Below are positions 25,812 through 58,915 of a stretch of 64,000 bases of DNA, piece by piece. The notes under the pieces are model-generated. The model was not told the origin of the DNA. It made no database searches and was given only the letters and a program-made list of their open reading frames with translations. The stretch's first letter is position 1; every line of letters starts with the position of its first letter. Origin of the DNA: Pocillopora damicornis (taxonomy: Eukaryota); contig NW_020847100.1 of NCBI RefSeq assembly GCF_003704095.1, forward strand, positions 434,001 to 498,000, written 5' to 3'. A program made the translations under genes and the position numbers.

Positions 25812-28800
25812 ATTCTGATGATGTCCCAGATGAATGTACATCGTACAACGTTTTCAATGAGCCGGACAGATATTGGAGCAGTACTGGACATTCTATGATA
25901 TGCGATAATAATCTTGCCAGTGATCATGACGGTTGGTACCGCTTCGAGGGTGCTGCTGGAATAATGATGGCTACTCATTGTATTCCAATACAAAGTTGCA
26001 ATAGCCACATGGCGGGTTGGATCGGTGGTGGTGATCACCCCTCCTCAGCTTACCAGAAGGTGACGAGAACAGCGTATATGCATTACGGCTCAAGTTGTGA
26101 AAATGTGGCTTACCCCGAGACGGAAATACGTAACTGTAGTGGATTCTACGTTTACAAACTGCAATCAGTTAACGGCTGTTACCAGCGGTATTGTGGTGTT
26201 AATGGTAAGTGTCACATCAAGAACATCAGGTTTTCTTTTTAAAGAGCTGCACTGCATTGAGCAGCTTTTCTGTAAATATTGTTCACCAGCCTTGTGTCAT
26301 TGCTGGAGGTCGCCTGTGGGGTAGATCGCTACTTTCTCGGCCACCCCGTTTTCAATGTTGTTAAATACTTTGGAGCGGGGCGGAAGGGGTGGGGGAAAAA
26401 TAATGAACAAAGTTCGAGAAAGAAATATGGTTCGATGGGAAATTAAAAATCATCTAATTAAAAAGGTCACATCGACGCAAGAGGTACGCACCCAAAGATC
26501 CAGTGACATGGTAGATTTTTCTTTATAAAGAATTATAAAATGTTCCACTTTATGCAGTTTCAATTGGTTCTTGCGCAAATTGATGAATAAGTGCGAAGCA
26601 TAAACAACCTTAGTGTCCTAAGCTTTTTTATAGAATTTCTTCCAATAATATTAACATAGGACTATCAATATTAAAAGAAAATCTAGACATATTTTGTTGT
26701 GGTAAGAGTTGAAAAAACCTTGATCAATACTGATTTGGTATGAAAAAATGAAGCACTTCTAATGTTTGTGGGTACACGTGAGCGCTGTAGTGTCTGGTTT
26801 ACTCATGATTAGTTGGGCATTAAGCCATTAAGTCATTTCTTAGTCAGAATGATTTCGTCTTCAACAGATGAGAACGATGCATGTCATGCCAATCCTGGCT
26901 CAGCTGCATGTACCTGTCCATCTGGTTATTCAGGCACTCCTTGTCAAGGTACGTGTGTAAAATTAATTGATGGTAATCACTTACACTCCTTCATAGAACT
27001 TTAGTGTAGAGCCTTATCGTTCAGAAAAAAATAGAAAAGGTGTTTTTCTCCCTCTCATTTGCTAATTTGTTTTTTGTTTTCGTACTCAGTGCAAATTTGA
27101 GTAAATCTTCTCATTTTAGATTTTAAGTCAATCCTAGTGAAGCGAGAAAGTTTGATCTTTAATGACGATAAAGGACAAGAGGCAATGGCCGTTGTGATTG
27201 ATTTCTTCCCCGAATAAGGTTGTGTTCGATACCGATTATATCCCAATTTTTCCAACCTGTGGATTATATGAGTTAAAAAGATTATTGAATTCCCGCCGTT
27301 AAGAATTCACATAATTTCCCCACCAGTTTTTTTAACTATTCACTTTGGCCACGTCATGGTAAGGACAAACTTTTAATTGGTTGGTTGTATTTTCCGTGTC
27401 ATTAGATACCGATGAATGTACCTCAGGAGGCCATAATTGTCACTCACAAGCCATATGTTCCAATACTCCTGGCACATTTACATGCTCTTGTAAAGCTGGT
27501 TTTACTGGCGACGGTGTATCTTGTAGCGGTTAGTGTTTGGGCATCTCTTGCATCTTTTAAGGTTCTTTAGAGAATCAAGCTTAAAATGGTAGTGAGGTCT
27601 CCCCACATGCGTATTCATCAACAATTCATATTTGGACAGGAAATAAGTAAAAATTGAAAGCTTGAAAAAGGTGATGGCAATCACTGGTGTTACAGCCACA
27701 CATGTCGAGAAATCCAAGAATTTTGGTAGATTAAGCTGATTAAATGAACGGTGCGAGATGCTGAAAAAAAGGAAACTAGGAGATATCGTGAAAAAAAATG
27801 ACGAAGGGAAAGAAGAGATTCTATATATTATCGGCTTCTGCTGTGGTGTTATCTTTCAGAGGATTGTGGTATGTCCGAAGGTGAAAATGAACTTCTCTCA
27901 TATGGGAGATCAGGGATTGATTGCCTGTAGCCAAAAGCGAGTTCTTCGGCCGGTAGATGGGAAAGATTGTTCGAAGATTGTTAATAATACTCAACCAAAA
28001 CGAACGGGTGGAACTAAAAAAAACCCACTTATAGCAGGACTACATTAAGATTGGTTGTTTGCTTATTTGCTGAATCACTCAGAGCTGTCAATTCGTGCGT
28101 AAATAACAACTGATAGCTAATAAATGGTCCACTTATGCTTAAGAGTAAAAAAATAGTTTTGGGGTACGTTATTATTCCACTCTATTCATCAAATTTCTTC
28201 TTTTAATGCAGAGTGAGTGGTAGGCTGTAAACTGTTTATTAAAGACGTCATCATTCCATCGAATAGATATTTATAAGAGAGGTATTAGCAATATAAACTT
28301 ACATAACCCTTGTTCTCATTATCTAAGATATCGACGAATGCACTAATGGTGCCCATGACTGTCACCAAGATGCTGATTGTGAAAACACAGAGGGTGTATT
28401 TACTTGTAGTTGTAAACATGGATTCACAGGAGATGGACGTCAATGCACAGGTGATAAATTCATAACTTTTATTCTCTCTCCCAATATAGGGCACTTGCAT
28501 ATCTTTTGATCTTTAATGACTGAAAGGGAAAAAAAAAACCAAATCAGCAATTTCTCCAGTTGGAGGCCGATGGCAACAGTGTATTTTGCAGTTACTTAAA
28601 GGTTTTGAAAACGTTAAAAGGTCGATAGATAACCTCTTAGTAGCAAATCTTGATCCTAGATCTCAAAAATCTCTGAAAATGTTGATTCTTTCCTTCGATT
28701 GCCACACAGAAAGTCAGAGTTACAGAAGTGTTATAGTTTGTGTGCACGGGCTGATTATATCTCCTTGGCGGTAGATGTTGATGAATGCACAGATGCCTCG

Positions 28801-31800
28801 CATAACTGTCATGCGAAAGCAGATTGTAGTAACACTCAAGGCTCTTTCGGCTGTGCTTGCATTCAAGGATATTCAGGAAATGGTGTTACATGTACAGGTA
28901 TGATAGCATAAGAAAATTATTCTTTAACTATTACGGTCCGCCATTTATGCGCAACTAGTTTATTTGCCTGTAACGCGGTATATTGACTTTTTTCCTCAAT
29001 TAATCTGAACCTTAAGCAGACTACACTGGCGACGTCAACAAGGAAATGGGAAACAATCAAATTAATTGGGTGGAACAATGGTTCACCTCGTGCTTTTACA
29101 ACTTTGTAAACTTGTTAGCCGTTCTTTGAAAAACAACACCGTGAAATCAACCAAATTTTCGAAGGGAAACCCCCGACCAAAAGTTATCTAAGTTTCCACT
29201 TGAGAATCAATGTTGCTCTTACTTGTTTTGGTGAAGTTGAAGAGTGCCGCCTTACGAGACACATAATTCTAACAAAGCATATACATTTATTTTTCAATCG
29301 TCTTACTCGGTATTGCTGTCCAGATTGCTTAAGATACCCATTGATTAAGGGGAAACATGTGCCTACTGATCGCTTTATGTGTCCCGCTTTCCTCTCTCCA
29401 ACCCGGAAACATTAAAATCACCGGAATATGTCTCTTTATAACTTCAGATATCAATGAATGCACCAGCAGCATTGATGACTGCCACACAGACGCAGAATGT
29501 TCCAACACCGATGGTGCGTTTACTTGTAGTTGCAAAGGAGGATTTTCAGGAGATGGTCGACAGTGCGCAGGTGCGGTATCCTCGTATTTTCTTTCCATTT
29601 TCATCATCTTTTCTTTTCGTATTTTTTCTTTTTTTAATCACTATCGTAGTAAACATTGTAGCAACAATATCATCGTTATAGTCTCGCTACGCGCTAGACA
29701 GTGCACAGGTGTGAAATCCTTAGATTTTATATCCATTTTTGTACTTGTTTTTTATTACACTTTTCCTTCTTATCATTTTCGTTTTAAGACACTGTAGCAG
29801 CATTATCATCGCGTAAATTTCGCCCAGCCCCAACTGATATTAAAAACCTGGATATCACCCCGATTTACATTGTATTTGGCGTATAGAGGGGAAAAAATCA
29901 GCAAAAACGAAATAAAACAAAACAGGACCACATTTTATTTGATAGGTATATTTAATTATACTTTATCCATGTTAACTAAAAATTCCCAAATAACCAAATG
30001 TACTAAGCAGGCATTGCAGGTACCGTTTCTCTTTTGAATGTCTAATTTTGTGTAACGAGGTAATGCTGTGTCTGATTGCTTCAGATATTGATGAATGCAC
30101 AGATGCAACTCACAACTGCCATTCAAATGCGGATTGTTCTAACACTTATGGCGGGTTCAACTGTACTTGTTTTCAAGGATATTCAGGAGATGGTGTTACA
30201 TGTACTGGTATGAAAGTTGTTATAAATATTCTCAATCTACAGCCGTACAGCCATACACAGTGTGCCTTAATATTTTTGATCGAGATCTCTGGATACTGAA
30301 AGTCTTTGCGGTCTAGAAGCCGCAGTTAATATCTACAATTACCGAATGATCACCAGAACAAGCGGAATAGTAAGCTATATGAAAGAAACAACATACAAAC
30401 AAACAAACAAACAAAATACGATGAGCGAAGGAAAACAAACATAAAAAAAAAATTTACCGTTTCCATCGGCATAATTTATAACCAAGTTTTCCTTCTACCT
30501 TGCTCACGATACTGTATGGTTTGTTGTTATGAATTAAAACTTTGAACTAAACGATACAATCTCACAGATATTGATGAGTGTGCCACAGCAACTCACAACT
30601 GTCATGGTGTTGCTCACTGTTACAATAATGATGGATCATTCACCTGTGAGTGTAGGACTGATTACCAAGGCGACGGTATTTCTTGTGAGCCCTTTGGTAA
30701 GTGACCTAGTTCTTCGTTTGATCACCATAAACTACAATTGATAATAACCCCCCACAAAAACTTATGATATATATAATATATACTTTAGTTCATGCTACAC
30801 AGTTTATCTACTTTTCTCCTGATTGATTCATAAGAATACGTTTAACCCGTCCATTGGATCTTGTTTTACAGGAGATTTCTCTGTAACAATTAAAAACATA
30901 TCCAAGGATAAATATTTGGCAACTACTGTCAAACGGTCTGAAAAAAGTATCCATCAGGCAATCATCGAAGATCTTCCAGATAAACCTGTGTTGGAAAGTG
31001 TCATGGAATGGCGTTTAATTAGTGAACAGGAGCTGGCAGCTTCTGAATCACCAGTGGGAACTTTAGTCAGTCAAGGAACTGCACAGTGGACCATAAATAG
31101 GCGATCCGTACCTTCTGGAAACTATCAAGTAAAATTTACTGCGTCTATTAAATTCGGTGATTCAGTATCCTCAGAAACTCTCAAGGCTTTTGATTACGGC
31201 TTTATCAAAGTTATTTCAGCTCCTTTGCGAGCCATAATCGATGGAGGAAGTAGCGTTCTTTGGGGCTCTAAAGACACTGTTACAGTGGATGGATCCCTTA
31301 GCTATGATGGAGATATTGGTCCTGGAAACTCTAGTGGGCTGAAATCTACCTGGTCCTGTTATCGTCTTGGAGATAATACTTCCTTCAGCGACAATTGCTT
31401 TGGTTCTTTCAAGGGAGACGTAACTCTAACATCCATAGACATTATCCCTGGTGGGCTTGATATTGGAAAAAAATTCGTTCTCAGACTAACAGTGTCCAAG
31501 GATGATCGAAGTCATTTTGCCGAAATTATTTTTGAGATAGCAACTGGTGTGATACCTCAAGTTAGCTTAAGGTACTTTAAAATGATTGTTTTATTCAATT
31601 CTTCCTCTCTTACAGTCATCCTCTATACACAATCATTCTGTTTTGTTGAAACATTACAAAGTAGTGATTGCAGTGGCTTTGTTCTACCTTCAACCAATCA
31701 CACGCAAAGCTGAGGCTTTTCTAGACTTGGCCTCAAGCAATGTTGAGTGCGTCAGGAATGTGACCCGTCTTTCATATCGTTGTTGTTGTTATTATTGTTG

Positions 31801-34800
31801 TCTTTTCCTCAGATTAATGCAAAATGAATTATAAAAATCGATCTATTTTAATTCTCTTATTTTCATGCAGGTGTTTTGTAGATTGTGGTAAAATAGTCTC
31901 TGCTTCGAATAAGTTTCGAGTAACATCAGAGTGTCTCAATTCCCCCTGTATTGGTTCAGAGTATCTATGGCAATTAATGAGATTCAATGATGATTCAAAT
32001 CAACTGGAACTCATAAATATTCTACCCAATATGACATCGACTGCTATAAATGCAACCAACATGATTATCAAAAAGAACTCCTTGCAGTCAAGCTCGAAAT
32101 ACACTCTGAACTTAACTGTGATACCCCCCGGTGGAACAGCTGGATTTGCAGTGCTCGAGTTTGAGACAGCTGGGCAGCCCCACAGTGGCTACTGCGTGCC
32201 ATCAGCCGTTGTAGGTTTCTCTTTGGAAACAAAATTTTCATTTGAATGCTTTGAATGGCAAGATAAAAGTACACCACTATCTTACGAATTTCGTGTTGGG
32301 GACGAGCCAATATCCTATGGCACCTCTGCTAAATCTGTTTCGACAGTCTTGCCCTCTGGATTACCGGAAAACGATTATCAGCTGTCAATCAACATTATTA
32401 TCAAGAATGCTGTTGGTGTGGCCCTTGTGGAGAAGCTCTCTGTGAAGGTAATGATAAAAACTGTATGCCTCTGACGGTTTCTCTAAAAGGTCTATGGAAT
32501 CTATCCAGTGTCACATGAGCACAACTATGATTGATGCGTATAGTTGAATAGCGTACAAAGTCCTGACGGATTGTTGCACCCTCCGCACCCAAGTATTAAG
32601 AAAACACAGACGTAGTCGGCTAAAACGGGAAAAGTTTCACCACTCCGAAATTAAAGAAGGAAAAGAAGAATCGAAGCAAAACAATCAAGAAACGAGTAGT
32701 TTGCTGATTTAATAATTTTAGTGACCACTTTTGTTTCAAGTACAAGTGAATTTGAGCAAGATGAGATTGCTTTAGTAGTCGAAAGGCGCAAAATAGTTTT
32801 ATAAAAAGTAAACTTTCGTCCGCCACCTATTAAAGCTTTCAAACATTTGTTCTGTTTTCCACAAGGTGGTGCCATCGTCCCAACTCGATCCTTGCCGTTC
32901 ATCGGTAGAAGAAGTGTCTAACAAATTGAAAGGTTTCGTAATTGGGGACGACAGCGACTTGGATAAATTTCTAAAGAAGGGTGAAATTAGTCAAGCCTCT
33001 CAACTTGCTATCACTGTTCTCAAATCAGCCAGCGAAGAAACGGAGTGTGGGCAGACGCTCAGCAAAGATACCAAAACACTAGTGGGTCCACTTACTGTAA
33101 TTTTTTTTTTTTATAAGCGGTGGAGAGCTGTGTGTTTGTTTGTTTGTTTGTTTGCTTGATCATTTGTTTGCTTCTTACGCCATCCACAAGAGATTATCTC
33201 ATACATGTATATAAAAATTCGTTGTTGTATACCTGATATTCATCTGAGGTAACAGTTTCAAAATTTTTTACTCCTTGTAAGCTTCTTTTAGCTCCCAAAA
33301 ACTTTAGATATTTCATTTACTGGCGTAGATTTCAAGTACGTTAGTGGAAAAGTTCACCTCCATAAAGCCGGAGGACCTTCAGATGTCCCGAACTGTTATG
33401 GGTGTAGTCAAACTAGCAGGTGGTAACCAAGACGCTCAATCTTGCAATGACTGTGGAAATTCTGCGGTAAGAATCTAGCCTTCTCTTCTCTTACACAAGA
33501 ACAGCAAAGTATCACAAAATACATGTAAACTGTTTTGATCGTAATCAAATGCCTTTCTTTAGAATGAAACTATGAAACTAACGGATGCCACAACAGAACT
33601 ACTTAAGTCTGTCCTTGGTGACTTAGAGGAGCCATTTTCTGATGAACTGGAAGAATCGGCTGTCGGTATCACCACGTGTCTAAAAAACGTTCTAAAGTCT
33701 TCCCCTGAATCAAGCAAAGAAAGTGGAGATTTAAGAAAGAGCACTGAATCTGAGAAGGTATGACAAAATTTGATTCACGAAATTAAGTAAACGAGAGTAA
33801 CTCATATTATGTTATCCTGTACATATCAAGGAGTTTCACTGAAATGACATCTTCTGTAATTTAACTGCTCCAATTGTTTGCACGGAGATGAGGGTGTTTC
33901 TATCAAGATGACATTTTCTGACCAAATTAAAATATGTGAGCACTAAACATTAGCTACCACAGACAGTATCAAACAAATAACGATTGCAAATTCCTATTCA
34001 AGAAATTGATTATCGCTCGGAAATTGCATTTAGTAGAAAATTTTAACAGAAACTCTTTTTTACCACAGGAGAGTGTGAAGCAAGCTGCTGAAAAACTGGA
34101 CGCTATGAACGACGCATTTTTCGCACGCCTGGTTCCCTCTGAAAATCTTGTCCTAAAAACTCCTGGCTTGACATCGACCCTTAAGAAGGTATCTGCTGAC
34201 GGTATAAAGGGTCTTAATATGGAAGATGGACCAACAAAATTTAGACTACCAGGAAACCTAGGGAATATGGCTGATGGAAACATCAATGCAAAGGTATGAA
34301 GTTTTAAAGCGTAGATATACAACAAACCTGGCATTTTCAAAATTGAATGTCATTAGCAACTATCTGTCAACGCTTTTGACGTTTAGCGTTGCATCAAAAG
34401 TTTGAACCTTTTATTTAAAATTACTCTCCTTACGTCACTTATTGCTGCGAAATTGTATTCGATCCAATTGCTTTGATGACTAAGCGTTCCGAAACAATTT
34501 TTTTGTGTTTCTCAGTTGCAATGATGGCTTACACATTCTTTACTGCAGTATTGTAGAAAAGTCATACACACAAACTTCGAAATGTTTCTCCAAATATATT
34601 TTATTTTCAAAGAATACGTGCTGGGTATATCACAGCAGAACACTGATTCTCAAGGTGTGAAACTAGAGGCTTGATCAACTGAATTGGCCACCTCAGACAG
34701 TTTCTAAACCTGACTTTTCGAGCGTCAGCCCTTCGTAAGAGCGAATAGTCTCGTTAGTAAATTACGCCTTTTAGTTGAAAAAGTATATCCTCTGTGTTCT

Positions 34801-35200
34801 GTTTTTGCAGATGAAAAGTGCTGAGTTTAATCCCTTCTCTTGGGACAATAGCAGCAAGAAAGTCCAGTCCAGTGTCATTAGCCTCGAGCTTCAAACGGAA
34901 AATGCAACAAAACTGAATGTTTCAAACCTCGATAGTAACATTGAGATAGTTATACCTATTTCCACCCCACCTTCAAATACCAGCAACGGATCAGAGCATT
35001 ATTTTCTAAAGCCAAACCAATTGACTATGAGGAGCTATTACGCCGACCTAGCAGATGTACCTGTTTCCATCAGCCTGGGTGTGGCAAAAGAGGAAACATT
35101 AGTTAAAATGTTTGTGAAATTTGGGTCAAGACCTTCCACAGAGGACTCTGACCTCAACTTTACGCTAAAGCTCACGTCAAAGTGCGGAAATGTGACAAAG
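25812..35200 (+). CDS. Polycystin-1-like (PKD1L2/PKDREJ-type) protein, copy 1, extracellular part: D8C - EGF - 6x calcium-binding EGF - REJ - GAIN; cut by a gap
   Basis: Exons 25812-26204 (D8C: CD...GWYRF...C...GW...[12 protein letters not shown]...RYC), 26868-26948, 27406-27528, 28328-28450, 28775-28897, 29448-29570, 30085-30207, 30568-30696 (D-I/V-D/N-EC cbEGF), 30872-31571, 31871-32447 (REJ: [23 protein letters not shown]), 32866-33081, 33329-33466, 33563-33757, 34069-34293 and 34811-35200 (FNPFSW). All junctions GT-AG and in phase. Confidence 0.9.
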
Positions 35201-35300
35201 NNNNNNNNNNNNNNNNNNNNNNNNNNNNNNNNNNNNNNNNNNNNNNNNNNNNNNNNNNNNNNNNNNNNNNNNNNNNNNNNNNNNNNNNNNNNNNNNNNNN

Positions 35301-36696
35301 CGCTTTACTGAAGACTGACATCCACAAATGGCTGTCAGCTATCTTTCTCCCAAAACGCGATCTCACCTCCGCCGAAAAGGATGTAGCTGCTTTGCTTTTT
35401 ACACTAATTTCTATCTGCCCATCGTCTTTTTCAAGTGCAAGCCATCTATTTATGGGGAACACCCAGCGTTCTTCTGTCTGTCTGTCTCTGATTACCACTG
35501 TTTCTACAAACCAAGATGGATTTTCGCCTGAATTATCTTGTTCCAAAGTTATTTCGTTTAGATTTCCTAATGAATCGTTTGTAACCAGTACAAAACCGTT
35601 TATACTTCCTCGACCAAAAATTTCCTGTAAATCACCATGTTTTTGAAGAGTAATGAGATCATGTTCATCGTTGTCTCCTTTAATGCTCATCGTTACGTTT
35701 GCCGTTGTTGCTGAATCTTTCCAGACGCCAGTGCTGATAACCATGTCGTAGTAGTATGTTCCTTCTTCAGCAAGATTTATCTGTAGCGGTGAGAAAATCT
35801 GCGAAAACAAGTAAACATAACATAGTTTACCTTGTTAATATGGTAGTGGTGCCACAAAAAGAGTAACGTCACTGAGCTGATGATGGGAGACCGAACTTTC
35901 GATTATTTCCCCGCTAAATAATTGAAATGTCCAGCGAAAACACCTCCTTAACTTAAAAAGACTGTTTCAATTTGATTTCACATTGCTTGACACATTCTTT
36001 CATTTCTTTGGATGTAAGAGACAATAAAGAAGAAAGATACATTTTGGTATAGAGTAAAAATTGGAAAAGGTCATATTTCTCATCGTAAGCTCTTAACTGT
36101 ATTACTACTGCGGGATGATTTGTACGTAAATATTACATGCAATACTTAAATTCATACCTTGCTTTCATCTCTTTTGTCAGCCCTCCTTGCAAATATAAGA
36201 GCTACAAAGTAAATAAGGAACGCACATGCAATTGTCACGAGCACTGAAATGTTGCCCGACTCGCTAAGTCGAGCAAACTCCGTGAAAACTTTGTCGAAGT
36301 CAATGGGATTGGGAGCTTGAATGAAATTTCCGCCGAAAGACGTCAGATGGTTGCAGAGGCATTTGAGATGTGTGGTGTTAGAGCCCACGTCGACCTGCCA
36401 TGGAAATATAAAAAAACACCTGCCATCAGTATATGTCGATAGATTTCCTTCTAGGATTTAGCTCACCTTGTAGGGTAATATGGCTGGTTATCCTGTTTTC
36501 TAAGAATTTTTTTGAAATCATGATTTTATTGAAACTTACTTTGCAACCATCGGATGTCCACTTTTCCTCATCTTCAGACCAATACAAACAACTTGATTGG
36601 GTTATAGTAAACGTATAGTTGACATCAGTTTGTGGGTTATATTGAGGTACAATCGTCTGAAGGATCCCTTTCGGAGGTGGATCTTTGACGCCAACG
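35301..36696 (-). CDS. Polycystin-1-like fragment, inverted contig: GPS - TM1 - PLAT/LH2
   Basis: Exons 36540-36696 (CLYWSEDEEKWTSDGCK), 36158-36394 (CLCNHLTSFGG, TM1, RRADKRD) and 35301-35798 (Y...ISTG...ATTANV...GENPSWFVE...FPINRWLA). Bounded by N-gaps. Confidence 0.9.
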
Positions 36697-36796
36697 NNNN
36701 NNNNNNNNNNNNNNNNNNNNNNNNNNNNNNNNNNNNNNNNNNNNNNNNNNNNNNNNNNNNNNNNNNNNNNNNNNNNNNNNNNNNNNNNNNNNNNNN

Positions 36797-37993: not shown

Positions 37994-38093
37994 NNNNNNN
38001 NNNNNNNNNNNNNNNNNNNNNNNNNNNNNNNNNNNNNNNNNNNNNNNNNNNNNNNNNNNNNNNNNNNNNNNNNNNNNNNNNNNNNNNNNNNNN

Positions 38094-39198: not shown

Positions 39199-39298
39199 NN
39201 NNNNNNNNNNNNNNNNNNNNNNNNNNNNNNNNNNNNNNNNNNNNNNNNNNNNNNNNNNNNNNNNNNNNNNNNNNNNNNNNNNNNNNNNNNNNNNNNNN

Positions 39299-42126: not shown

Positions 42127-42971
42127 GAGAGTGTGAAAAAAGCTGATGAAAAATTGGACGCTATGAATAATGCATTTTTCACCCGTCTTGTTCCCTCTGA
42201 AAATCTTGTCTTGAAAACTCCTGGCTTGACATCGACCCTTAAGAAGGTATCTGCTGACGGTATAAAGGGTCTTAACATGGAAGATGGACCAACAAAATTT
42301 AAACTACCAGGAAACCTAGGGAATATGGTTGATGGAAACATTAATGCAAAGGTAAGGATTTTTAAAGTGTAGATAAACAACAAACCTCGCATTTCCAAAT
42401 TGGATGTCATTTGAAAATATCTGTCAACGCTTTTAGCGTTGCATCAAAAGTTTGAACCTTTTGTTTAAAATTACTCTCCATACGCCACTCATTGCTCAGA
42501 AATTGTATTCGATCCAATAGCTTTGATAACTAAGTGTTTTGTAACACTATTTGAAGTTTCTCAGTTACAATGAATAGCTTACACATTCTCTACTGCAGTA
42601 CTGTGAAAACGTCATGCACATAAACTCTGAAATGTTTCCCAAATACACTACATTGTCAAATAATACGTGGTATATATATATTGAAGCAGGTTAAGGTTCT
42701 CTTTTGATAAATTTCGTTTAATATTTTTGCCTTAAATCAGCAGGATATTGATTCTTAAAGTGTGAAAATACTGGTTTAATCAACTGAACTGGTAACCTCG
42801 GGGAGTTTCTAAAGCGGAGAGTTTCTAAAGCTGATTTTTCGAGGGTCAGCCCTCCGTCAGAGCAAATAGTCTTGCTAGTAAATTACGCCTTTTACTTGAA
42901 AGAGTATAACTTCCGTGTTTTTGCAGATGAAAAGTGCTGACTTTAATCCGTTCTCTTGGGACAATAGCAGC
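42127..42971 (+). CDS. Polycystin-1-like GAIN-region exons, second version
   Basis: 42127-42351 (ESVKKADEKLDAMNN...) and 42927-42971 ([15 protein letters not shown]), homologous to 34069-34293 and 34811 onward. Confidence 0.85.
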
Positions 42972-43071
42972 NNNNNNNNNNNNNNNNNNNNNNNNNNNNN
43001 NNNNNNNNNNNNNNNNNNNNNNNNNNNNNNNNNNNNNNNNNNNNNNNNNNNNNNNNNNNNNNNNNNNNNNN

Positions 43072-43907
43072 GCTGCTATTGTCCCAAGAGAACGGATTAA
43101 AGTCAGCACTTTTCATCTGCAAAAATACGGAGGTTATCCTCTTTCAACTGAAAGGCGTAATTTACTAACGAGACTATTCGCTCTGACGGAGGGCTGACCC
43201 TCGAAAAATCAGCTTTAGAAACTCTCCGAGGTTACCATTTCAGTTGATTAAATCACTATTTTCACACTCTAAGAATCAATATCCTGCTGATTTGAGGCAA
43301 AAATATTAAACGAAATTTATCAAAAAAGAAACTTAACCTGCTTCGATATATCTATCACGTATTATTTGACAATGTAGTGTATTTGGGAAACATTTTGGAG
43401 TTTAGGTGCATGACGTTTTCACAATTCTGCAGTAGATAATGTGTAAGCTATTAATTGTAACTGAGAAACACCAAATAGTGTTACAAGACACTTAGTGATC
43501 AAAGCTATTGGATCAAATACAATTTCTGAGCAATGAGTGNNNNNNNNNNAGTAATTTTAAACAAAAGGTTCAAGCTTTTGATGCAACGCTAAAAGCGTTG
43601 ACGGACATTTTCAAATGACATCCAATTTGGAAATGCGAGGTTTCTTGTTTATCTACACTCTAAAACTCCTTACCTTTGCATTAATGTTTCCATCAACCAT
43701 ATTCCCAAGGTTTCCTGGTAGCTTAAATTTTGTTGGTCCATCTTCCATGTTAAGACCCTTTATACCGTCAGCAGATNNNNNNNNNNNNNNNNNNNNNNNN
43801 NNNNNNNNNNNNNNNNNNNNNNNNNNNNNNNNNTCAGAGGGAACAAGACGGGTGAAAAATGCATTATTCATAGCGTCCAATTTTTCAGCAGCTTTTTTCA
43901 CATTCTC
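43072..43907 (-). CDS. Polycystin-1-like GAIN-region exons, third version, inverted
   Basis: 43674-43907 and 43072-43116; a diverged reverse-complement of 42127-42971. Confidence 0.8.
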
Positions 43908-44020
43908 CTGTAGTAAAAAAAAAAATCTACTGAAATTTTCCACTAAATGTGATGTCTGAGGAATGAGCTAAGCCTTGACTAAGCCTTTGCAAGTGTTATT
44001 GTTTAATACTGTCTATCGTA

Positions 44021-46346: not shown

Positions 46347-49300
46347 ATGTTGATGAATGCACAGATGCCTCGCATAACTGTCATGCCAAAGCAGATTGTT
46401 CCAACACTTATGGCAGGTTCAACTGCACCTGTTTTGAAGGATATTCAGGAGATGGTGTTACATGTATTGGTATGATAGTTGTTATAAATACTTAATCTAC
46501 AACCATGCAACCATACACAGTGTTCCTTAATATTTTTGATCGAGATGTCTCGACATTGAAAGTCTTTGTGGCTTTGCCGATACAGTTAATGCCCACAATT
46601 ACTAAATGATCACCAAAAAAAGCAGGATAGCCAGCCGTATAAAAGAAACACTTATGGCAGGTTCAACTGCACCTGTTTTGAAGGATATTCAGGAGATGGC
46701 GTTACATGTATTGGTATGATAGTCATTATAAATACTTAATCTACAACCATGCAACCATATACAGTGTTTCTTAATATTTTTGATCGAGATGTCTCGACAT
46801 TGAAATTATTTGTGGCTTTGTCGATGCAGTTCATGCCCATAATTACTAAATAATCACCAAAAAAAGCAGGATAGCCAGCCGTATAAAAGAAAAAATAAAC
46901 AAACAAACAAAAAATGAAGAGCACAAAAATACAAACAGGAAAAATAAATTTTTTTTTTACCGTTTACATCGGCATAATTTCCAAGGAGGTTTTTACCACC
47001 CCTTGAGTTTTCCAGGACAACCATTAACCTTACCCATGATACTGTATGGTATGTGGTCACGATTTAGAACTTTGAACTAAAAAAATACAATCCCACAGAC
47101 ATTGATGAGTGTACCACAGCAACGCACAACTGCCATGGTGTAGCTCACTGTTACAATAATAATGGATCATTCACCTGCGAGTGTAGGACTGATTACCGAG
47201 GAGACGGTATTTCTTGTGAGCCCTTAGGTAAGTGAGATAATTCTTCGTTTGACCATCATAAACTAGAACCGATAGTAACCCTATATAAACGCCTATGAAA
47301 AGAAAAAACCTTCGAGGCATACAGGTTATCTCGCTTTAGTGTGATTGACTCATAAAAATGCGTTTAACCAGTTCATTGCATCTCGATCAACAGGAGATTT
47401 CCCAGTAACGATTAGGGATATATCCAAGGACAAATATTTGGCAACGACTGTCAAGCGGTCTGAAAAAAGTATCCATCAGGCAATCATCGAAGATCTTCCA
47501 GATAAACCTGTGTTGGAAAGTGTCATGGAATGGCGTTTAATCAGTGAACAGGAGCTGGCAGCTTCTGAATCACCAGTGGGAACTTTAGTTAGTCAAGGAA
47601 CTGCACAGTGGAACATAAATAGGCGATCCGTACCTTCTGGAAACTATCTAGTAACATTTACTGTGTCTATTAGAGTCGGTGATCCAGCATCCTCAGAAAC
47701 TCTCAAGGCTTTTGATTACGGCTTTATCAAAGTTATTGCAGCTCCTTTGCGAGCCATAATCGATGGAGGAAGTAGCGTTCTTTGGGGTTCTAGAGACGCT
47801 GTTACAGTGGATGGATCCCTTAGCTATGATGGAGATGTTGGTCCTGGAAACTCTAGCGGGCTGAAATTTACCTGGTCCTGTTATCGTCTTGGAGATAATA
47901 CTTCCGTCAGCAATAACTGCTTTGGTTCTTTCAAGGAAGACGTAACTCTAACATCCATAGAAATTATCCCTCGTGGGCTTAAAATAAGACACCCATACGT
48001 TCTCAGACTAACAGTGTCCAGAGATGATCGAAGTCATTTCGCCGAAATTATTTTTGAGATAGCAGCTGGTGAGATACCTCAAGTTAGCTTAAGGTATTTT
48101 AAAATTATTGTTTTATTCTATTCTTCCTCTCTTTCAGTCGTCTTCTATACACAGTCGTTCCGTTTTGTTAAACCCTTAAGAGTACATTACAAATTGCTGA
48201 TTACAGTGGCTTTGTTCTACCTTCAACCAATCACACGCAAAGCTGAGGCCTATGTTGACTTGGCCTTATGCAATTTTGTAGATCATTGTTGTTGCTACTA
48301 TTGTTTTCTCCTCAGATCGATGCAAAATGAATTATAACAATCAATCTACTTTAATTCTCCTATTTTCATGCAGGTGTTTCGTAGACTGTGNNNNNNNNNN
48401 NNNNNNNNNNNNNNNNNNNNNNNNNNNNNNNNNNNNNNNNNNNNNNNNNNNNNNNNNNNNNNNNNNNNNNNNNNNNNNNNNNNNNNNNNNCAATCAATCT
48501 ACTTTAATTCTCCTATTTTCATGCAGGTGTTTCGTAGACTGTGGTAAAGTAGTGTCTGCTTCGAACAAGTTTCGAGTGACATCAGAGTGTCTCAATTCTC
48601 CCTGTATTGGTTCTGAGTATATATGGCAATTAATGAGGTTGAATGATGATTCAAAACAACTGGAGCGCATAGCTATCTTACCCAATATGACATCAACTGC
48701 AATAAATGCAACCAACATGATTATCAAAAAGAAATCCTTGCAGTCAAGCTCGAAATACGCCCTGAACCTGACTGTAATACCCCCCGGTGGGACAGCAGGA
48801 TTTGCAGTGCTGGAGTTTGAGACAGCTGGACAGCCCCACAGTGGCTATTGCGTGCCATCAGCCGTTGTAGGTTTCTCTTTGGAAACAAAATTTCATTTGA
48901 ATGCTTTGAATGGAAAGATAAAAATAAACCACTATCTTACGAATTTCGCGTCGGAGACGAGCCAATATCCTATGGCACCTCTGCAAAATCTGTTTCAACA
49001 GTCTTACCCTCTGGATCACCGGAAAACGATTATCAGCTGTCCATCAACGTTATCATTAAGAATGCTGTTGGTGTGGCTGTTGTAAAGAAGCTCTCTGTAA
49101 AGGTAATAATAAAACTGTACGCCTCAGAAGAGGGTTTCTCTGAAAGGACCGTCAAATGTACAATAGGTACAGGTACAATAAAGTTGATGAACCACGAGTA
49201 CTGGGAAAAGCACAGACGTAGGCGGATAAAAAGGGTGGAAGAAGGAAAAGACGAATCAACGCAAAACAATAAAAAAAGTAGTTTTGTTGATTTAGTGACT

Positions 49301-50059
49301 TTAGTGACCACAATTCGTTTTAAGTATAGGTGAATCTCAGCAAGCTGAGATTGCTGAACCAGTCGAAAGGCGCAAGATATTTTTGTAAAAAGAAAACTTT
49401 ATTCCGCCATGTATTAAAGCCTTCTACACTTGTCCTGTTTTCCAAAAGGTGGTGCCATCGACCCAACTCGATCCTTGCCGTTCACAGATAGAAGAAGTTT
49501 CTAGCAAGTTGAAAGGGTTTGTCATTGGGGATGACAGCGACTTGGATAAGTTTCTGAAGAAGGGTGAAATTAGTCAAGCCTCCCAACTTGCTATTACTGT
49601 CCTCCAATCAGCTAACGAGGAAACAAAGTGTGGGCAAACGCTAGGCCAAGATACCAAAACACTAGTGGGTCTACTTACCGTGTGTAATATTTTTTTCAAA
49701 TTAGCTGTGGAGAGCTGTGTATTTGTTTGTTTCTATGCTTTTTTTCCCGATAATCTGCTTGTTTTTTTAATGTCATCCACAAGTAAGCATCTCATACACT
49801 TATATACAAATTAGCTGTTGTATAGTTGATATTAATCTGAAGTATCAATTTCAAAATTTAGTTATCCCTTGTAAGCGTTTTTAACTCCTCAAAACTTTAG
49901 ATACTTAATTTTCCGGCGTAGATTTCAAGTACGTTGGTGGAGAAGTTCACTTCCATAAAGCCGGAGGACCTTCAGATGTATCGAACTGTAATGAGTGTAG
50001 TAAAACTAGCAGGTGGTAACCAAGAAGCCTCATCTTGTAATGACTGCGGTAATTCTGCG
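46347..50059 (+). CDS. Polycystin-1-like copy 2: cbEGF x2 - REJ - GAIN start, with a 1-nt frameshift in the second REJ exon as assembled
   Basis: Exons 46347-46469, 47099-47227, 47394-48093, 48527-49102 (576 nt vs 577 in copy 1), 49449-49664 and 49922-50059. Confidence 0.85.
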
Positions 50060-50226
50060 GTAAGAATTTTCACTTTTCCTCTTTTACACATAAACTGCGA
50101 CGTATCAGAAAACACATGAATATTGTNNNNNNNNNNNNNNNNNNNNNNNNNNNNNNNNNNNNNNNNNNNNNNNNNNNNNNNNNNNNNNNNNNNNNNNNNN
50201 NNNNNNNNNNNNNNNNNNNNNNNNNN

Positions 50227-52100
50227 AAGGTGAAACAACATCATGATGAGGTAGAATAGCACCATTGCCAAGAATAAAAACTGGCAAATGAGATAAAACA
50301 TGAGAGCCCCCGACTCTGTGCTGTACAACTCAAGGGTGTCCACTCTCATAACTGTGTAGGCTGCACCAGCTGCAATCATTTCGTAGATAAACGTAGCAAT
50401 GCTAATTAAATTTGTATTGATATTGAACGTCGCAAGCTCCACAATTACTGATCGAGTACTTCGATCAAGCCATCCATGGCCAATGGTTTCATCTAAAACG
50501 CCACGTGCTGTTTNNNNNNNNNNNNNNNNNNNNNNNNNNNNNNNNNNNNNNNNNNNNNNNNNNNNNNNNNNNNNNNNNNNNNNNNNNNNNNNNNNNNNNN
50601 NNNNNNNNNNNNNNNNNNNNNNNNNNNNNNNNNNNNNNNNNNNNNNTGGCCGCCAGCCTGGAAGACTCAACTCTGTTGTGTCCTCTATCTCTGGAGAATA
50701 ATCGTAGTAGCAGTCTCGTATAGTTGCAGGAAGTGACTTACAATGACCTTCAGGACACGAAAAAAAGGAATCAGACGTTTGAAACGAATCGTAATAAAAT
50801 TAATCGTATAAAAATAGTATTATAATTGAGTCAAATGTAATTATCATCAAACGTACTTTTAAGAATTCTTAACTGTCGCATCCAAGGCATGCCAATCAGT
50901 ATGGACATCTTATTGGCGATGTAAACATCATTTGGTTCTTCGAGGCCATTATACCAGTCCTGGTTGTATACGTTTGGTAGAAACTTCTCTGCCAGCCATC
51001 TCGACAGTCTTCGCGAATCAGTCACCTTAACACGGAACACAAAAGTAAGTTCACATAATTAGATTGAGGAACTAAATATTGACTTGTATTGGGTTAAGTT
51101 AAGTTAAGTAAAAGGGAGTGATTTATATGTTATTCAGAAACTTAACATAACCAAACTTCTACACTGCATTTAGTACTGCCGCCTTTACTTCGTTTGGCCT
51201 AATAAAAAGATGAATGAAAATGATAAGAACTGTAGAAGGAGGGAACTAAGATCATCATTAGCAGGCTTCATCAGCCTTATCTGATCGAGTCCCACAAAAA
51301 CCCGTTCCAAATACACTGCGACTACACCATTCCCTACTTCACTACAACACTCTAACTCATTATGAAATAAATCTCATCATGATCATTGTAATCAAGTCTA
51401 TTTGTAACAGAACGATCGAACGTGATTGATTCTCATCATCCCGGTCTGGGTATTAATTAGGACAATGTAAGTGCCATGCTTTTAATTGCACAGTTTTTTT
51501 ACCAGTGTGCGCGCCTTGCCTGTGTAATTAGATAGCACTCGTCATATGTGCACGCCATTGTCGCGCATTTCGTCAGAAAAAAATTGTTTGCTTGTCTGTT
51601 TGTTTGTTCATTTTTTTTTTTGAAAAGCAATCATAGATGCCGTGTTTTTCTCTCAAAGTTAGTCATAGTTTGAATTCTGCTAACAAAATTTTATATCGCC
51701 CAATTCACTCAGTATTAATACTGGTAAGCAATAAATCACTCCTTGATTACAAACCGAATTGGACTCCACTCAGTTCAGTTGCCATTACTAATCATCGTTA
51801 TCGTTATTTCTATCATTATTATCACTATCACTGTTATCGTTAATGTTATCGATTTTCAATTTTAAAAGATATAAAAACAAAGTGGTTCATACCTGATCAA
51901 AGCTTGCGAAAATATTTTTCATCTCTGTTGTCATCAAGAAACGATTCTCATTCTTGTTGCCATAACAGACTACAGACAGCAGAAACACAAATAATAAATG
52001 GAAGACAATTTCCCTCGCTTTACTTGCTAACTGAGCCTCTTTTCTGCTTCGTATGCGCATTTTCTCCATGAGGCTCTGTTTAAAGCGTTGTTTAGGATTA
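50227..52100 (-). CDS. Polycystin-1-like fragments, inverted: TM6/S1, TOP domain and channel start
   Basis: 51893-52100, 50857-51025, 50647-50747 and 50227-50513 (GWLDRSTRSVIVELATFNINTNL). Confidence 0.85.
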
Positions 52101-52200
52101 NNNNNNNNNNNNNNNNNNNNNNNNNNNNNNNNNNNNNNNNNNNNNNNNNNNNNNNNNNNNNNNNNNNNNNNNNNNNNNNNNNNNNNNNNNNNNNNNNNNN

Positions 52201-53874
52201 TTAAGAATGCTGTTGGTGTGGCTGTTGTAAAGAAGCTCTCTGTAAAGGTAATAAAACTGTACGCCTCAGAAGAGGGTTTCTCTGAAAGGACCATCGAATG
52301 TACCCAGAGGCGCAAAAGCACAACTAGGATTGGTACGTAGCGTTGAATAGGCTACAAAGTCCTGGGGAATGGTTATGCCCCCCGCACACTAGGTACAATA
52401 AAGTTGATGAACCACGTGTACTGGGGAAAGCACAAACGTAGGCGGATAAAACGGGTGAAGTTTTCACCAGTCTTAAATGGAAGAAAGGAAAAGACGAATC
52501 AACGCAAAACAATAAAAAACAAGTAGTTTTGTTGATTTAGTGACTTCAGTGACCACGATTCGTTTTAAGTACAAGTGAATCTCAGCAAGTTGAGATTGCT
52601 GAACCAGTCGAAAGGCGCAAGATATTTTTGTAAAAAGAAAACTTTATTCCGCCATGTATTAAAGCCTTCTAACGCTTGTCCTGTTTTCCAAAAGGTGGTG
52701 CCATCGACCCAACTCGATCCTTGCCGTTCACAGATAGAAGAAGTTTCTAGCAAGTTGAAAGGGTTTGTCATTGGGGATGACAGCGACTTGGACAAGTTTC
52801 TGAAGAAGGGTGAAATTAGTCAAGCCTCCCAACTTGCTATTACTGTCCTCCAATCAGCTAACGAGGAAACAAAGTGTGGGCAAACGCTAGGCCAACATAC
52901 CAAAACACTAGTGGGTCTACTTACTGTGATAATATTTTTTTCAAATTAGCGGTGGAGAGCTGTGTATTTGTTTGTTTCTATGCTTTTTTTCCCGATAATC
53001 TGCTTGTTTCTTTTAATGTCATCCACAAGTAAGCATCTCATACACTTATATACAAATTAGCTGTTGTATAGTTGATATTAATCTGAAGTATTAATTTCAA
53101 AATTTAGTTATCCCTTGTAAGCGTTTTTAACTCCTCAAATCTTTAGATACTTAATTTTCCCGCGTAGATTTCAAGTACCTTGGTGGAGAAGTTCACCTCC
53201 ATAAAGCCGGAGGACCTTCAGATGTCTCGAACTGTAATGAGTGTAGTAAAACTAGCAGGTGGTTACCAAGAAGCCTCATCTTGTAATGACTGCGGTAATT
53301 CTGCGGTAAGAATCTTCCCTTTTCCTCTTTTACACATAAACTGCGACGTATCAGAAAACACATGAATATTGTTTTGATCGCAATCAAATGCCTTTCTTAA
53401 GAATGAAACTATGAAACTAACGGATGCCACAACAGAACTACTGAAGTCTGCCCTTGGCGACTTAGAGGAACCATTTTCTGATGAACTGGAAGAATCGNNN
53501 NNNNNNNNNNNNNNNNNNNNNNNNNNNNNNNNNNNNNNNNNNNNNNNNNNNNNNNNNNNNNNNNNNNNNNNNNNNNNNNNNNNNNNNNNNNNNNNNNTTT
53601 TCCTCTTTTACACATAAACTGCGACGTATCAGAAAACACATGAATATTGTTATGATCGCAATCAAATGCCTTTCTTAAGAATGAAACTATGAAACTGACG
53701 GATGCCACAACAGAACTACTAAAGTCTGCCCTTGGCGACTTAGAGGAACCATTTTCTGATGAACTGGAAGAATCGGCTGTGAGTATCACCACGTGTCTAA
53801 AAAACGTTCTAAAGTCTGCCCCAAGGTCGAACAAAGAAAGTGGCGATTCAAGGAAGAGCACTGAATCTGAGAAG
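52201..53874 (+). CDS. Polycystin-1-like fragments: REJ end and GAIN-region exons (allelic or duplicate versions)
   Basis: 52201-52247, 52695-52910, 53168-53305, 53402-53497, and again 53680-53874. Confidence 0.8.
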
Positions 53875-55080: not shown

Positions 55081-58000
55081 ATTTCCCCACCGATACAGAT
55101 AAATCTTGTGGAAGAAGGAGCATACTACTATGACATGGTTATCAGCACTGGCGTTTGGAAAGATTCAGCAACAACGGCAAACGTAACGATGAGTATAAAA
55201 GGAGAAAACGATGAACATGATCTCATCACTCTCCAAAAAAATGGTGATTTAGAGGACATTTTTAGTCGAGGAGGTATAAATAGTTTTGTTTTGGTCACAA
55301 ACGAGTCATTAGGAAATCTAAACGAAATAACTTTGGAGCACGATAATTCTGGAGAAAGTCCATCTTGGTTTGTAGAAACAGTGGTAATAAGAGACAGACA
55401 AACAGAAGAACGCTGGGTGTTCTCCGTTAATAGATGGCTTGCACTAGAGAAGGACGATGGACAGATAGAAATTAGTGTGAAAAACGAAGCAACTACTTCC
55501 TTTTCAGCAGAGGTGAGGTCGCGCTTTGGGAGGAAAATAGCTGACAATCATTTGTGGATGTCAGTCTTCGGCAAACCGTGCAGTAGTACATTCACGCGTG
55601 TACAAAGAGCGTCTTGTTGTCTTTCAATTCTCTTCAGTGCAATGATAGCCAATGCCATGTTCTATAATGTTGGCGGGGAATCAGCGGGAGCAATACAAAT
55701 TGGACCTTTCAAGTTTTCCTGGAGACAAATAGTGATTGGAGTACAGAGTGCTATAATAGTTGCACCTGTAAATATACTTATCGTGTTTCTGTTTAAGTCT
55801 AGTAGAAGAAAGAAGAGGAAAGAGGACAAATATAAGGAATCCTTTCAAACAGAACAACTCGTCGATGAAATAAACGGTCAAGGCTGTGTCCTGCCATATT
55901 TCTGTGTATACATCGCATGGTTTCTCTGCTTTGTCACCACTATGACAGCAGCAACATTTACGTTATTTTACAGTTTGATGTGGGGTAAGGAAGTCGCTGA
56001 GCAGTGGCTAGCGTCCATTCTTATTTCCAATGGACAAGACGTTTTTGTTATGCAACCAACAAAGGTCATGTTAGCAGTTCTTTTAGTTTCCTTTCTTTTG
56101 AGTAGAAACAAAGAGGATGATGGGGAAGAGGGAGATGTCAAAGAGGGTAAACTCCAAGACAATGACTTAGATTTCCTGAGTGATAATCCTAAACAACGCT
56201 TTAAACAGAGCCTCATGGAGAAAATGCGCATACGAAGTAGGAAAGAGGCTCAACTGGCACTCAAAACAAAGGAAATTGTCCTGCATTTGGTATTTGTGTT
56301 TCTGCTGTCGGTCGTCTGCTATGGCAACAAGAATGAGAATCGTTTCTTGATGACAACAGAGATGAAAAATACTTTCACAAGCTTTGATCTGGTATAAAAA
56401 ATTTCGTTTTTATATTTCTGCGAATGATAAAGATCAATATAAGAAATTATAATGCGATACTATTGATGTGAAAGTGACGTTAGTCATGGTAATGATAATA
56501 TAAATGATAATATTAATGATAATATAAATGATAATGGTAATGATAATGGTAATGATAATGACAATGACGATGATAATGATGTAAATGACGGCAACGGCGA
56601 TAATAATGATGTATGATTTAAAACGACAAAGCCACGTCATAAGTAGGCAGTATATTTCAATTGGTTATTTGAGGGGCTAAAACTGACACATGTAATTAAG
56701 CCTGCTGATGATGACGGTAGTTCTTGCGATTTCAAATGAAATGATACGTTTTCATTCTTTGAATCATTAAGAGGCCTTAGCTTAAAATAATAGAGGTCAA
56801 GGCGTGAAATATAACTGCAGTGTAGAAGCTGGGTTTTGCTCATCTTCTAAGAATACGGTGGAGCGTAATCAAAACAAAATCTTTCATTCCAATTTAATAA
56901 ACAAAACGGGTTAATATTTTCAGATAGGCTACTGTAGAATGTTTGGTCGATGGAACCTTACTTACCTCCAAAATTACGTGCAGGAAGTGAAAAAGATTCA
57001 CGAGCATGATATTCAGTAAGCTATTCTCTCTTCTTTTTCGACTTTGAAGTATCCTGATAGTCGTAAGATTTTTTATATGTTGGACAATAATGGATATCTC
57101 TTGGTCGAAAAATTCAGTGTATTTTTACGTCAGTTAAAACAAGTGAATATCCAATTTATCAATGCAGTTATTTGAACTCATCGCGTTTGTGCTCCGTGAT
57201 CAGGTTACTGACTCTCAGCGACTGTGGGGATGGCTTAGAAAGCAGTTTCTGCCAAACGTATACAACCAAGACTGGTATAATGGCCTTGAAGAGCAAAATG
57301 ATGTTTACATTGCTAATAAGATGTCTATTTTGATTGGCATGCCTTGGATGCGACAGTTAAGAATTCACAAAAGTACGTTTGATGACATTACGTTGTTTTT
57401 ATTGGGTAAAGTGTAACAATGATCCGTTTCAAACTCTAATCATTCTTTTCATCGTGTTTTGAAGGTCGTTGTGAATCACATCCTGAAAATATACCAGACT
57501 GCTACTACGACTACTCTCCAGAGATAGAGGACACAACAGAGTGGAGTCTTCCAGGTTGGCAGCCTCTTCCCTACAATACATCCTGGCCAAAGGCACTTCG
57601 AATTTGTCCAAAACCCTGGCGTTATCAGACAGCTCAGACGCTAGACACTTATCCTGTGAAAGCCGTGTACAACACTTATGATGGAGGTGGATTCGTAGCC
57701 GTTTTGGGATATGATGAGCATACAGCAAATCGTAGCTTAGGTGAGACTTTTGGCAACGGGTGGCTTGATCGAAAAACTCGTGCTGTAATCCTGCAATTGG
57801 CGGCGTTTAACATCAATACGAACCTTATTAGCATTGTCACATTTATCTACGAGATGATCGCGGCTGGTGCAGCCTACACAGTAATGAGAGTTGATACCCT
57901 CGAGTTGTACAGTACGGAGTCGGGAGCTCTCATGTTTTATCTCATTTGTCAGTTTTCATTCTTGGCAATGGTGCTATTTTACCTTGTCATTATGTTGTTT

Positions 58001-58915
58001 CACCTTTACCGACAACGGATGGAATTTTTCAAGTCTGTCTGGAATATGGTTGATTTCTTGATGATCACCTCTTCTGCAATGTCTGTAGCGTGCTACATGA
58101 TGAGATCCAAGAAAATCTTAAACAGCATCAATGCAATTCAGAAAAATCCGTTCGAAATAATTCATTTTCATTCTGCTCTAAATTGGGCCAGCTGGGAAAA
58201 TTCTTCAATCGCTCTCGCGATTTTTATGGTTACTGTGAAGCTTTTAAATCTTATTCGCTTTAATCCATATGTCATATATTTGTTTTCATCTTTCCGCCGG
58301 TCTGTGGGCTACCAGCTGTCCTATTTTGTTTTCTTTGTCATAGTATTTAACGCGTTTGTTATATCAGGAATGGTGCTTTTTGGAGGCGTAGTTTATCATT
58401 ACTCTAGTTATCTGCACGCTGTCATATCGCAATTTGAATTTCTGTTGGGAAAAGCAGTCCCAATGGCTGATCTTCGCAAAGATAAACCTTTTATCGGTCC
58501 AACGTTCGTTCTTATGTTCATGTTAATGATGACGATATTTCTTATGAATATGTTGGTGTCTGTCCTAAACGAATCCTACACTGACGCTAAGGATAACGCA
58601 GAAGAAAGTTCAGAAGAGCTTGAAATGGCGCGCTTCATCGTGGAACGTTTTATGGACTTATTCCAAAAAGGAAAAAGGCGACCTGAGTTTAAATTATTTT
58701 GTGACGAAACAACTTTTGATAACATGTGTCGCTCAGACGCAGAACCATTCTGTGTAAATTCTCAAAGTATACTTCAGTGCACAGAAGAACGGTTAGAGAA
58801 CTTAGATAAAAGAATAAGCGCACTCATCAGACGCACGGACAACATCGGCGGTGATGACCAAAAAGAGGAAGAAGAGTTTCTCTCTCTCCTCAACTCAATA
58901 ATCCTTTCTCATTGA
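55081..58915 (+). CDS. Polycystin-1-like protein, intact C-terminal half: PLAT - TM2-6 - TOP - TRPP-type channel domain - coiled-coil tail
   Basis: Exons 55081-56391, 57204-57372 and 57465-58915 are in frame. Motifs HLWMSVF, FTRVQR, MRQLRI, YDGGGFV, WLDRKTRAV, WNMVD, KLLNLIRFN, IGPTF, FLMNMLVSVLNESY. Confidence 0.93.
56480..56615. repeat. (ATG/ATA)n degenerate microsatellite, intronic
   Basis: gataat/gtaat/gacaat runs. Confidence 0.8.

Follow-up and report, generated by a model that had tools for sequence, protein, structure and literature searches.

The vertebrate PKD1 family (PKD1, PKD1L1-3 and PKDREJ) is characterized by a REJ module, a GPS, a PLAT domain, a body of 11 transmembrane (TM) segments and a TOP domain, and has TRPP proteins as partners. 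The family has expanded in invertebrates as well. The sea-urchin proteins SpREJ1-10 are described with variable heads, composed of C-type lectin, SUEL, PKD or WSC modules and, in SpREJ1, one EGF, so that exchangeable heads on PKD1 bodies are already known; no D8C domain or array of calcium-binding EGF repeats (cbEGF) is described for SpREJ in that account (PMC1934368). In cnidarians, polycystin-1 of Nematostella hair cells and a skeletal REJ protein of Acropora have the REJ-GPS-PLAT multi-TM order, and both are reported with a head of WSC and PKD repeats. For the D8C/D10C module, on the other hand, a function is known only from uromodulin (UMOD) and GP2 of vertebrates, where it sits on a filament. 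Here we describe a 64,000-nucleotide (nt) stretch of the stony coral Pocillopora damicornis (GCF_003704095.1, NW_020847100.1, positions 434,001 to 498,000, forward strand), called the window below, in which one gene, gene A, joins a D8C/D10C head and a cbEGF stalk to the REJ module and the start of the GAIN region of a PKD1-family protein.

The window is AT-rich animal DNA, composed of 21 contigs joined by 20 N runs. Most likely, judged from sequence, a stony-coral PKD1-family (polycystin-1/REJ-like) gene is present here as two or more recent tandem paralogs, and its 3′ half has been scrambled in the draft assembly. The window has four copies of PLAT, three of channel sequence and three of several stalk exons, with both orientations represented. 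The original prediction for this DNA had set the coral head against those of vertebrate PKD1 proteins. Indeed, no LRR, WSC, C-type lectin, PKD repeats or SUEL were found and the coral head consists of D8C and cbEGF, but this contrast overlooks the known variation of invertebrate heads, as in sea-urchin REJ1-10 (PMC1934368).

The intact 5′ half of gene A

All exons from the D8C exon to the start of the GAIN region are present on one gap-free contig (contig 2, 18644-35200). Together with two leader exons, the 5′ half comprises 17 exons with 1253 codons without a stop; all 16 introns run from GT to AG, and the frame is still open at the N gap that ends the contig. The in-phase splicing that had been proposed for the region holds up to this point, but is not confirmed onward through GAIN/GPS, PLAT and channel to 58915. 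Likewise, D8C, short EGF, six cbEGF, REJ, PLAT, Polycystin_dom and PKD_channel are all real according to Pfam, but they do not form one in-phase gene.

Because the D8C exon opens in phase 1, gene A has to start upstream of it. The start at 25812 given by the original prediction overlooked the two leader exons and moves to 22176. This exon pair is the top of 16,734 in-frame leader chains compared with the N-terminus of the orthologue P0151, with a score of 55 (all chains: mean −12, standard deviation 10), an ungapped alignment over 33 amino acids and strong splice sites. By this homology, the two exons probably encode a leader that would target the protein to the surface. P0151 matches the head of gene A exon for exon with 55-83% identity and has a frame shift in its second cbEGF. 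Between the leader exons, 28 nt (22318-22345) are flanked by canonical splice sites and are possibly an alternative exon. Intron 2 contains the decayed remnant of a piggyBac-like transposase, with PF13843 in two broken frames (E 2.7e-11 and 1e-7) and one TTAACCCT-type terminal end at ~25245; a search for paired terminal repeats gave no matching second end. Upstream of 25787, tblastn with five queries (E up to 1) gave no match to a second D8C exon such as Oculina has.

For the D8C exon, the Pfam match (25814-26203) is marginal, with 29.1 bits against a cut-off of 27, while phmmer gives E 2.6e-14 to 1.1e-13 against GP2/uromodulin chains. A predicted model of moderate confidence (predicted local distance difference test, pLDDT, 65) finds UMOD/GP2 as all of its top 11 Foldseek matches (E 1.8e-7). 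By sequence and by predicted fold, the head is thus homologous to the D10C module of GP2/uromodulin. Eight of the ten cysteines are retained in gene A, C5 and C7 both being replaced; all nine modules of its relatives have ten. The cysteines of C1-C8, C2-C9, C3-C6 and C4-C10 align with those of uromodulin/GP2. Since C5 and C7 form a disulfide pair in the GP2 structure (PMC8930769), their joint loss fits a retained D10C fold. No cysteine is present ahead of C1 in the D8C exon or the predicted leader. In contrast to uromodulin and GP2, gene A lacks a ZP module and bears its head on a receptor.

In general, D8C is a promiscuous module in anthozoans. Among the 30 long D8C proteins returned by a search, one has a PKD channel and one more a REJ module; going by their domain accessions, the remaining proteins combine D8C with ZP, EGF arrays, CUB/FN3, Ig, VWD, TSP1/VWA or 7TM receptors. 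D8C on coral 7TM receptors is seen in P0193 and P0195 (Porites lobata and Oculina patagonica models).

In the stalk, EGF_CA scores above the Pfam cut-off in all six long EGF exons (37.7-45.6 bits), each of which has the calcium-binding consensus, unlike the short EGF. The REJ module that marks the PKD1 family follows on two exons (PF02010), and a Pfam scan of the four exons between REJ and GAIN gave no match.

Coral relatives and their heads

A search with the REJ exon of the window, an exon with 88% identity to a protein of Pocillopora meandrina, returned nine proteins, all from stony corals. The REJ-GAIN part of an Oculina match returned 14: 13 come from stony corals, and the other one is a distant anemone protein (P0019, 28% in REJ/GAIN), the nearest anemone match. 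As these searches were word-seeded and length-limited, a restriction of the family to stony corals is only suggested. Eight of the 13 stony-coral matches are full length (P0010-P0017), among them the Stylophora orthologue P0010.

The closest parallel is P0014 of Oculina patagonica, an NCBI automated model of 2651 amino acids ("polycystin family receptor for egg jelly-like") from a 38.3-Mb contig. It contains leader, D8C, short EGF, cbEGF, REJ, GAIN/GPS, PLAT, TOP and channel in one chain and in the same order, with 60-68% identity. P0014 has four D8C and two cbEGF, whereas in gene A a single D8C with 8 Cys is followed by six cbEGF. The combination originally predicted, a head of D8C and cbEGF on a PKD1-family protein, does therefore exist. 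The architecture is already present in automated annotation, and no description of a D8C-headed polycystin or of this coral family was found among the best-ranked matches in the open-access literature, subscription journals being outside the scope of that search. A search of representatives at 50% identity gave 11,397 matches; in the best 150, REJ was present in 13, D8C in 50 and both in none, so that no new full-length D8C-REJ example emerged.

Other heads on the same body are discoidin (F5/8C), discoidin plus LamG, or LamG alone, with one to 16 cbEGF; in three full-length models the head is not resolved. D8C-EGF-REJ models without a membrane part come from Desmophyllum (P0005), Porites (P0009) and Oculina (P0003 and P0004, which apparently represent one locus). 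Eight of the 14 matches lie on one contig of Oculina, 38.3 Mb long, and gene clusters are indicated in Oculina and Desmophyllum by locus tags that are close to each other. The P. damicornis model P0008 runs from TM/TOP into LamG-EGF-REJ, as though the end of one paralog had been joined to the head of the next, a layout that suggests tandem copies.

In a REJ tree of 18 proteins, gene A groups with P0001 and P0010 (support 100/100). D8C and discoidin heads need two changes each on this tree, of which the well-supported branches force only one, and a single group of D8C heads stays tenable under the approximately unbiased (AU) test (p 0.272; 4 versus 6 rows; 8 of the 18 proteins had unknown or other heads). 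The lineage-level exon shuffling that had been put forward finds support in the phase 1-1 head exons and in the other heads on the same body, but repeated independent head swaps are not demonstrated.

In contrast to the vertebrate family, all eight full-length relatives have, inside GAIN and ~70 residues ahead of the GPS, a close pair of multibasic sites that are furin-like and have cysteines on their flanks. A second cleavage at these sites could, going by the motif, free the ectodomain. The corresponding stretch of gene A falls in the window gap 35201-35300.

The scrambled 3′ half and the receptor body

A single plus-strand transcript over 25812-58915 is rejected by the 18 N gaps in this interval, the interleaved paralog copies and the missing plus-strand GPS. 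No plus-strand sequence of the window matches residues 1011-1172 of P0010, a segment that holds the complete GPS, and for residues 1011-1068 neither strand gives a match. Read in reverse, contig 3 opens in coding frame at P0010 residue 1069. Because it starts in frame 58 codons past the end of contig 2 and carries GPS, TM1 and PLAT, contig 3, presumably flipped by the scaffolder, would be the simplest continuation of gene A and is the best candidate for it. Its Pfam match to GPS comes in halves, and the GPS motif is present. Identity between contigs 4 and 6 is 94-96%, and in the intron they are 84-85% identical to contig 3; the PLAT copies sort into three groups.

A second cbEGF-REJ-stalk copy, paralog B, lies between the D8C gene and the intact C-terminal half on contig 20; its own head falls in a gap. 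Gene A and paralog B are 85-96% identical in exons and 81-86% in introns, the intron values rejecting the idea that these two are alleles. The two versions of paralog B, on the other hand, are 97-99% identical to each other in exons and are likely alleles or haplotypes. Along most of its length, paralog B matches P. meandrina P0001 with 97-99% identity. Its REJ2 exon (48527-49102) is one nt shorter than that of gene A and than the P. meandrina protein implies, which reflects either a broken allele or an assembly error. The half on contig 20 has 976 codons plus a stop, without internal stops, and may belong to gene A, to paralog B or to a third copy. Altogether, two N-terminal paralogs (A and B) face at least three C-terminal sequence groups.

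Regarding the body, the GPS motif H-L|T is present in contig 3 and in all eight full-length relatives, the link of contig 3 to gene A not being contiguous, and the sequence after it aligns with the start of the human polycystin-1 (PC1) stalk. Hydrophobic segments number 10 or 11 in the two relatives scanned and 1+5+5 in the window pieces. PLAT after TM1, 11 TM, TOP and channel are united in one chain in P0014, and in the window are present only as pieces on separate contigs. Among PDB chains, the orthologue is closest to polycystin-1 (E 2e-49). At the selectivity filter, both window copies read L-L-G-K, with Lys at the position of the PKD2/PKD2L1 Asp; six of eight relatives have Lys or Arg there, two have Thr and none has Asp. 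The acidic L-G-D filter and short N-terminus of PKD2/TRPP pore subunits are absent: the filter is L-G-K, and PLAT and extra TMs precede it. PKD1L3 shares the non-acidic filter residue, and its Lys2069 is part of a 1:3 channel of a single PKD1-type subunit with PKD2-type subunits (PMC8357825). The filter residue in the coral copies is as expected of such a single subunit.

Proposed function and rival explanations

We consider it fairly probable that gene A encodes a full-length PKD1-type contact or flow sensor that is cleaved at the GPS, tethers its head to a host partner and has a PKD2 channel as partner. The protein would be an 11-TM receptor subunit of ~2,400 amino acids that the leader sends to the surface. 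As self-cleavage at the GPS is described for PC1 and urchin REJ3 (PMC4890752; PMC1934368), the motif suggests the same here, with head, stalk, REJ and GAIN staying held on the membrane part. The last six helices would join three PKD2-type subunits in one pore, to which this subunit may add a basic residue, or guard, where PKD2 has Asp, by analogy with Lys2069 of PKD1L3. The cbEGF array would act as a rigid spacer that sets reach. It would not be a calcium sensor, because at the calcium level of seawater the array should be loaded at all times. The D10C head would mediate contact with host matrix, host mucus or a host partner at the cell surface, and its binding, pulling or shedding may gate the channel or a G-protein output. 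An N-terminal fragment of PC1 activates PC1/PC2 (PMC7728438), and polycystin signaling through G proteins (PMC13061903) provides a basis for the alternative output. The favoured role is that of an apical or ciliary contact or flow sensor. Polycystin-1 of Nematostella is reported to be needed for gentle touch (bioRxiv 2024.11.20.624413), and planarian pkd1-like and pkd2 genes are described as co-expressed in sensory neurons (PMC11448475).

Several points weigh against this proposal. No contiguous sequence or RNA connects the D8C exon of gene A to a channel exon. Only one of the eight full-length relatives has a D8C head, while P0003/P0004, P0005 and P0009 end before the membrane. The equivalence of the filter Lys to PKD1L3 K2069 is one of analogy; K2069 lies three residues after the filter Gly of PKD1L3. 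The C-terminal coiled coil is weak, with hydrophobic residues at six of eight a/d positions in the best 28-residue window of a crude test. Moreover, the Nematostella touch gene belongs to another subfamily, with a head of WSC and PKD repeats.

In a rival reading, gene A would be a truncated or decaying duplicate that yields a secreted D8C-EGF-REJ ectodomain or nothing, the channel exons coming from other paralogs. Both annotations of the one D8C-headed Oculina locus (P0003 and P0004), in a chromosome-scale assembly, end within GAIN near the point where contig 2 ends, P0005 of Desmophyllum ends in the stalk, and urchin SpREJ10 is described without a predicted TM (PMC1934368). Signs of decay are the missing nt in REJ2 of paralog B, the frame shift of P0151, the lost disulfide pair and the transposon remnant. 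We nevertheless regard truncation as unlikely: the 1253 stop-free codons are open at the gap, reversed contig 3 resumes the frame 58 codons later, the C-terminal groups outnumber the N-terminal paralogs, and the Stylophora orthologue is full length. A role in calcification is somewhat less likely still. In that case the receptor would be expressed in calicoblasts, would sense or attach to skeletal matrix, and its shed head would join the skeletal organic matrix. PKD1-like proteins have been found in coral skeletal proteomes, with shedding at the GPS proposed (PMC4890752), a "PKD protein 1-like 2" is listed from the Desmophyllum skeleton (bioRxiv 2026.03.24.713908), and close relatives came only from stony corals in the one search (9/9) and nearly so in the other (13/14). 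However, the described Acropora skeletal protein has a different head, of WSC and PKD repeats (PMC4890752), no match could be made between the Desmophyllum protein and the present loci, as the main text of that preprint gives no gene identifiers, and the main text of a spatial Pocillopora study makes no mention of polycystin.

Tandem duplication and variable heads also recall gamete recognition, in which the heads would read egg-coat ligands, as for sea-urchin REJ1/REJ3 or mammalian PKDREJ; lectin-headed REJ proteins are described on sperm, with heads under positive selection (PMC1934368). We judge this improbable: the D8C head is just a little more divergent than the body (60% versus 63-68% identity to P0014), and the sole PKD1-like gene named in the main text of a study on Euphyllia gonads is up in ovary, none being named as up in testis. 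Least probable of all is the microbe-binding decoy of the original prediction, a head that senses bacterial contact in the manner of uromodulin/GP2. It draws on the shared D10C fold, on an NCS sequon in five of ten coral modules, the window's included, at which the head may still display a glycan, and on sister paralogs with discoidin and LamG/pentraxin-like heads. Discoidin and LamG/pentraxin-like domains are often glycan binders. The vertebrate proteins have a high-mannose glycan, at N275 in UMOD and N65 in GP2, which a beta-hairpin and D10C hold between them and to which FimH binds (PMC8930769). The aligned window residues are Lys and Ser, and none of the ten coral modules has a sequon at either position. 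The glycan-shielding hairpin has no match either, as the alignment to GP2 starts at D61, and anthozoan D8C domains have numerous fusion partners that are unrelated to one another. The decoy reading is not supported.

Beyond the single gene, we tentatively suggest, as a possibility that is far from secure, that stony corals expanded one PKD1-type gene into tandem clusters that form a modular receptor repertoire. A shared REJ-GAIN-channel body would be combined with a cbEGF stalk of one to 16 repeats that sets reach and with interchangeable heads (D10C x1-4, discoidin x1-3, LamG/pentraxin), each head placing a TRPP calcium channel under the direct control of a different ligand. If so, D10C would have bound ligands as part of a receptor before it took on the role of decoy in vertebrates, and the coral family would be a non-decoy setting for it. 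The ligands and activation of the PKD1 family are still debated, and a set of paralogs with one body and many heads allows direct head-swap tests of how ectodomains gate a polycystin complex. For coral biology, the family is a candidate set of contact, flow or matrix sensors. Its significance is limited by the facts that PKD1 head shuffling is known in invertebrates, that D8C is promiscuous in anthozoans and that the architecture is present in automated annotation, the function being read from sequence.

Features of the window and neighbouring sequence

Table 1. Features identified in the window, in window coordinates.
Feature	Position	Strand	Evidence or remark
Leader exon 1 of gene A, with ATG and the beginning of a probable signal peptide	22176..22208	+	donor AAG|GTGAGT
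Gene A leader exon 2 (hydrophobic stretch), phase 1 end	22384..22450	+	best 9-residue hydropathy 2.4; relatives 1.9-2.9
Decayed piggyBac-like transposase, intron 2 of gene A	23262..25008 (element to 25251)	-	PF13843
D8C/D10C exon, phase 1-1, 8 Cys	25812..26204	+	Pfam, phmmer, Foldseek
Short 4-Cys EGF-like exon	26868..26948	+	Pfam 22.2 bits, cut-off 21.5
Six cbEGF exons, all phase 1-1	27406, 28328, 28775, 29448, 30085, 30568 (27406..30696)	+	EGF_CA
REJ module, two exons	30872-31571, 31871-32447	+	PF02010 E 2.7e-27, 6.6e-26
Four exons between REJ and GAIN	32866, 33329, 33563, 34069 (32866..34293)	+	Stylophora P0010 residues 623-882
Start of GAIN-region exon, open frame at N gap	34811..35200	+	P0010 881-1010, 78%
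Contig 3 reversed: end of GAIN exon, GPS (H-L|T-SFGG) and TM1, start of PLAT exon	35301..36696	-	
GPS exons	36541-36696, 36159-36395, 39031-39197	-	Pfam
Two more TM1/PLAT copies (contig 4, +; contig 6, -) and short TM fragment (contig 5)	36797..39198	mixed	
Stalk exon and GAIN start of paralog B, two copies, opposite orientation	42127..43907	mixed	97-98% identical
Paralog B, from the penultimate cbEGF exon through REJ and stalk exons; part of it present as two haplotype-like versions	46347..53874	+	
TM/TOP/channel fragments of a further copy, reversed (contigs 15, 16)	50227..52100	-	79-91% to contig 20
Intact C-terminal half, contig 20, three exons	55081..58915	+	Pfam PLAT, Polycystin_dom, PKD_channel
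Contig 20 exons: PLAT-TM; TOP; TOP/channel/tail	55081-56391; 57204-57372; 57465-58915	+	
Third channel/tail copy, contig 21	60263..61050	+	90% to contig 20
N-P-F-C exons	1651, 4378, 9047, 11088	-	
N-P-F-C exons	17865, 19512, 20774	+	

Upstream of gene A, between 1650 and 20900, at least seven exons have a common N-P-F-C motif and represent a repeated Cys-rich protein family; none of the ten exon frames scanned scored above a Pfam cut-off. The final plus-strand exon of this family has a hydrophobic tail at its end, at 20899.

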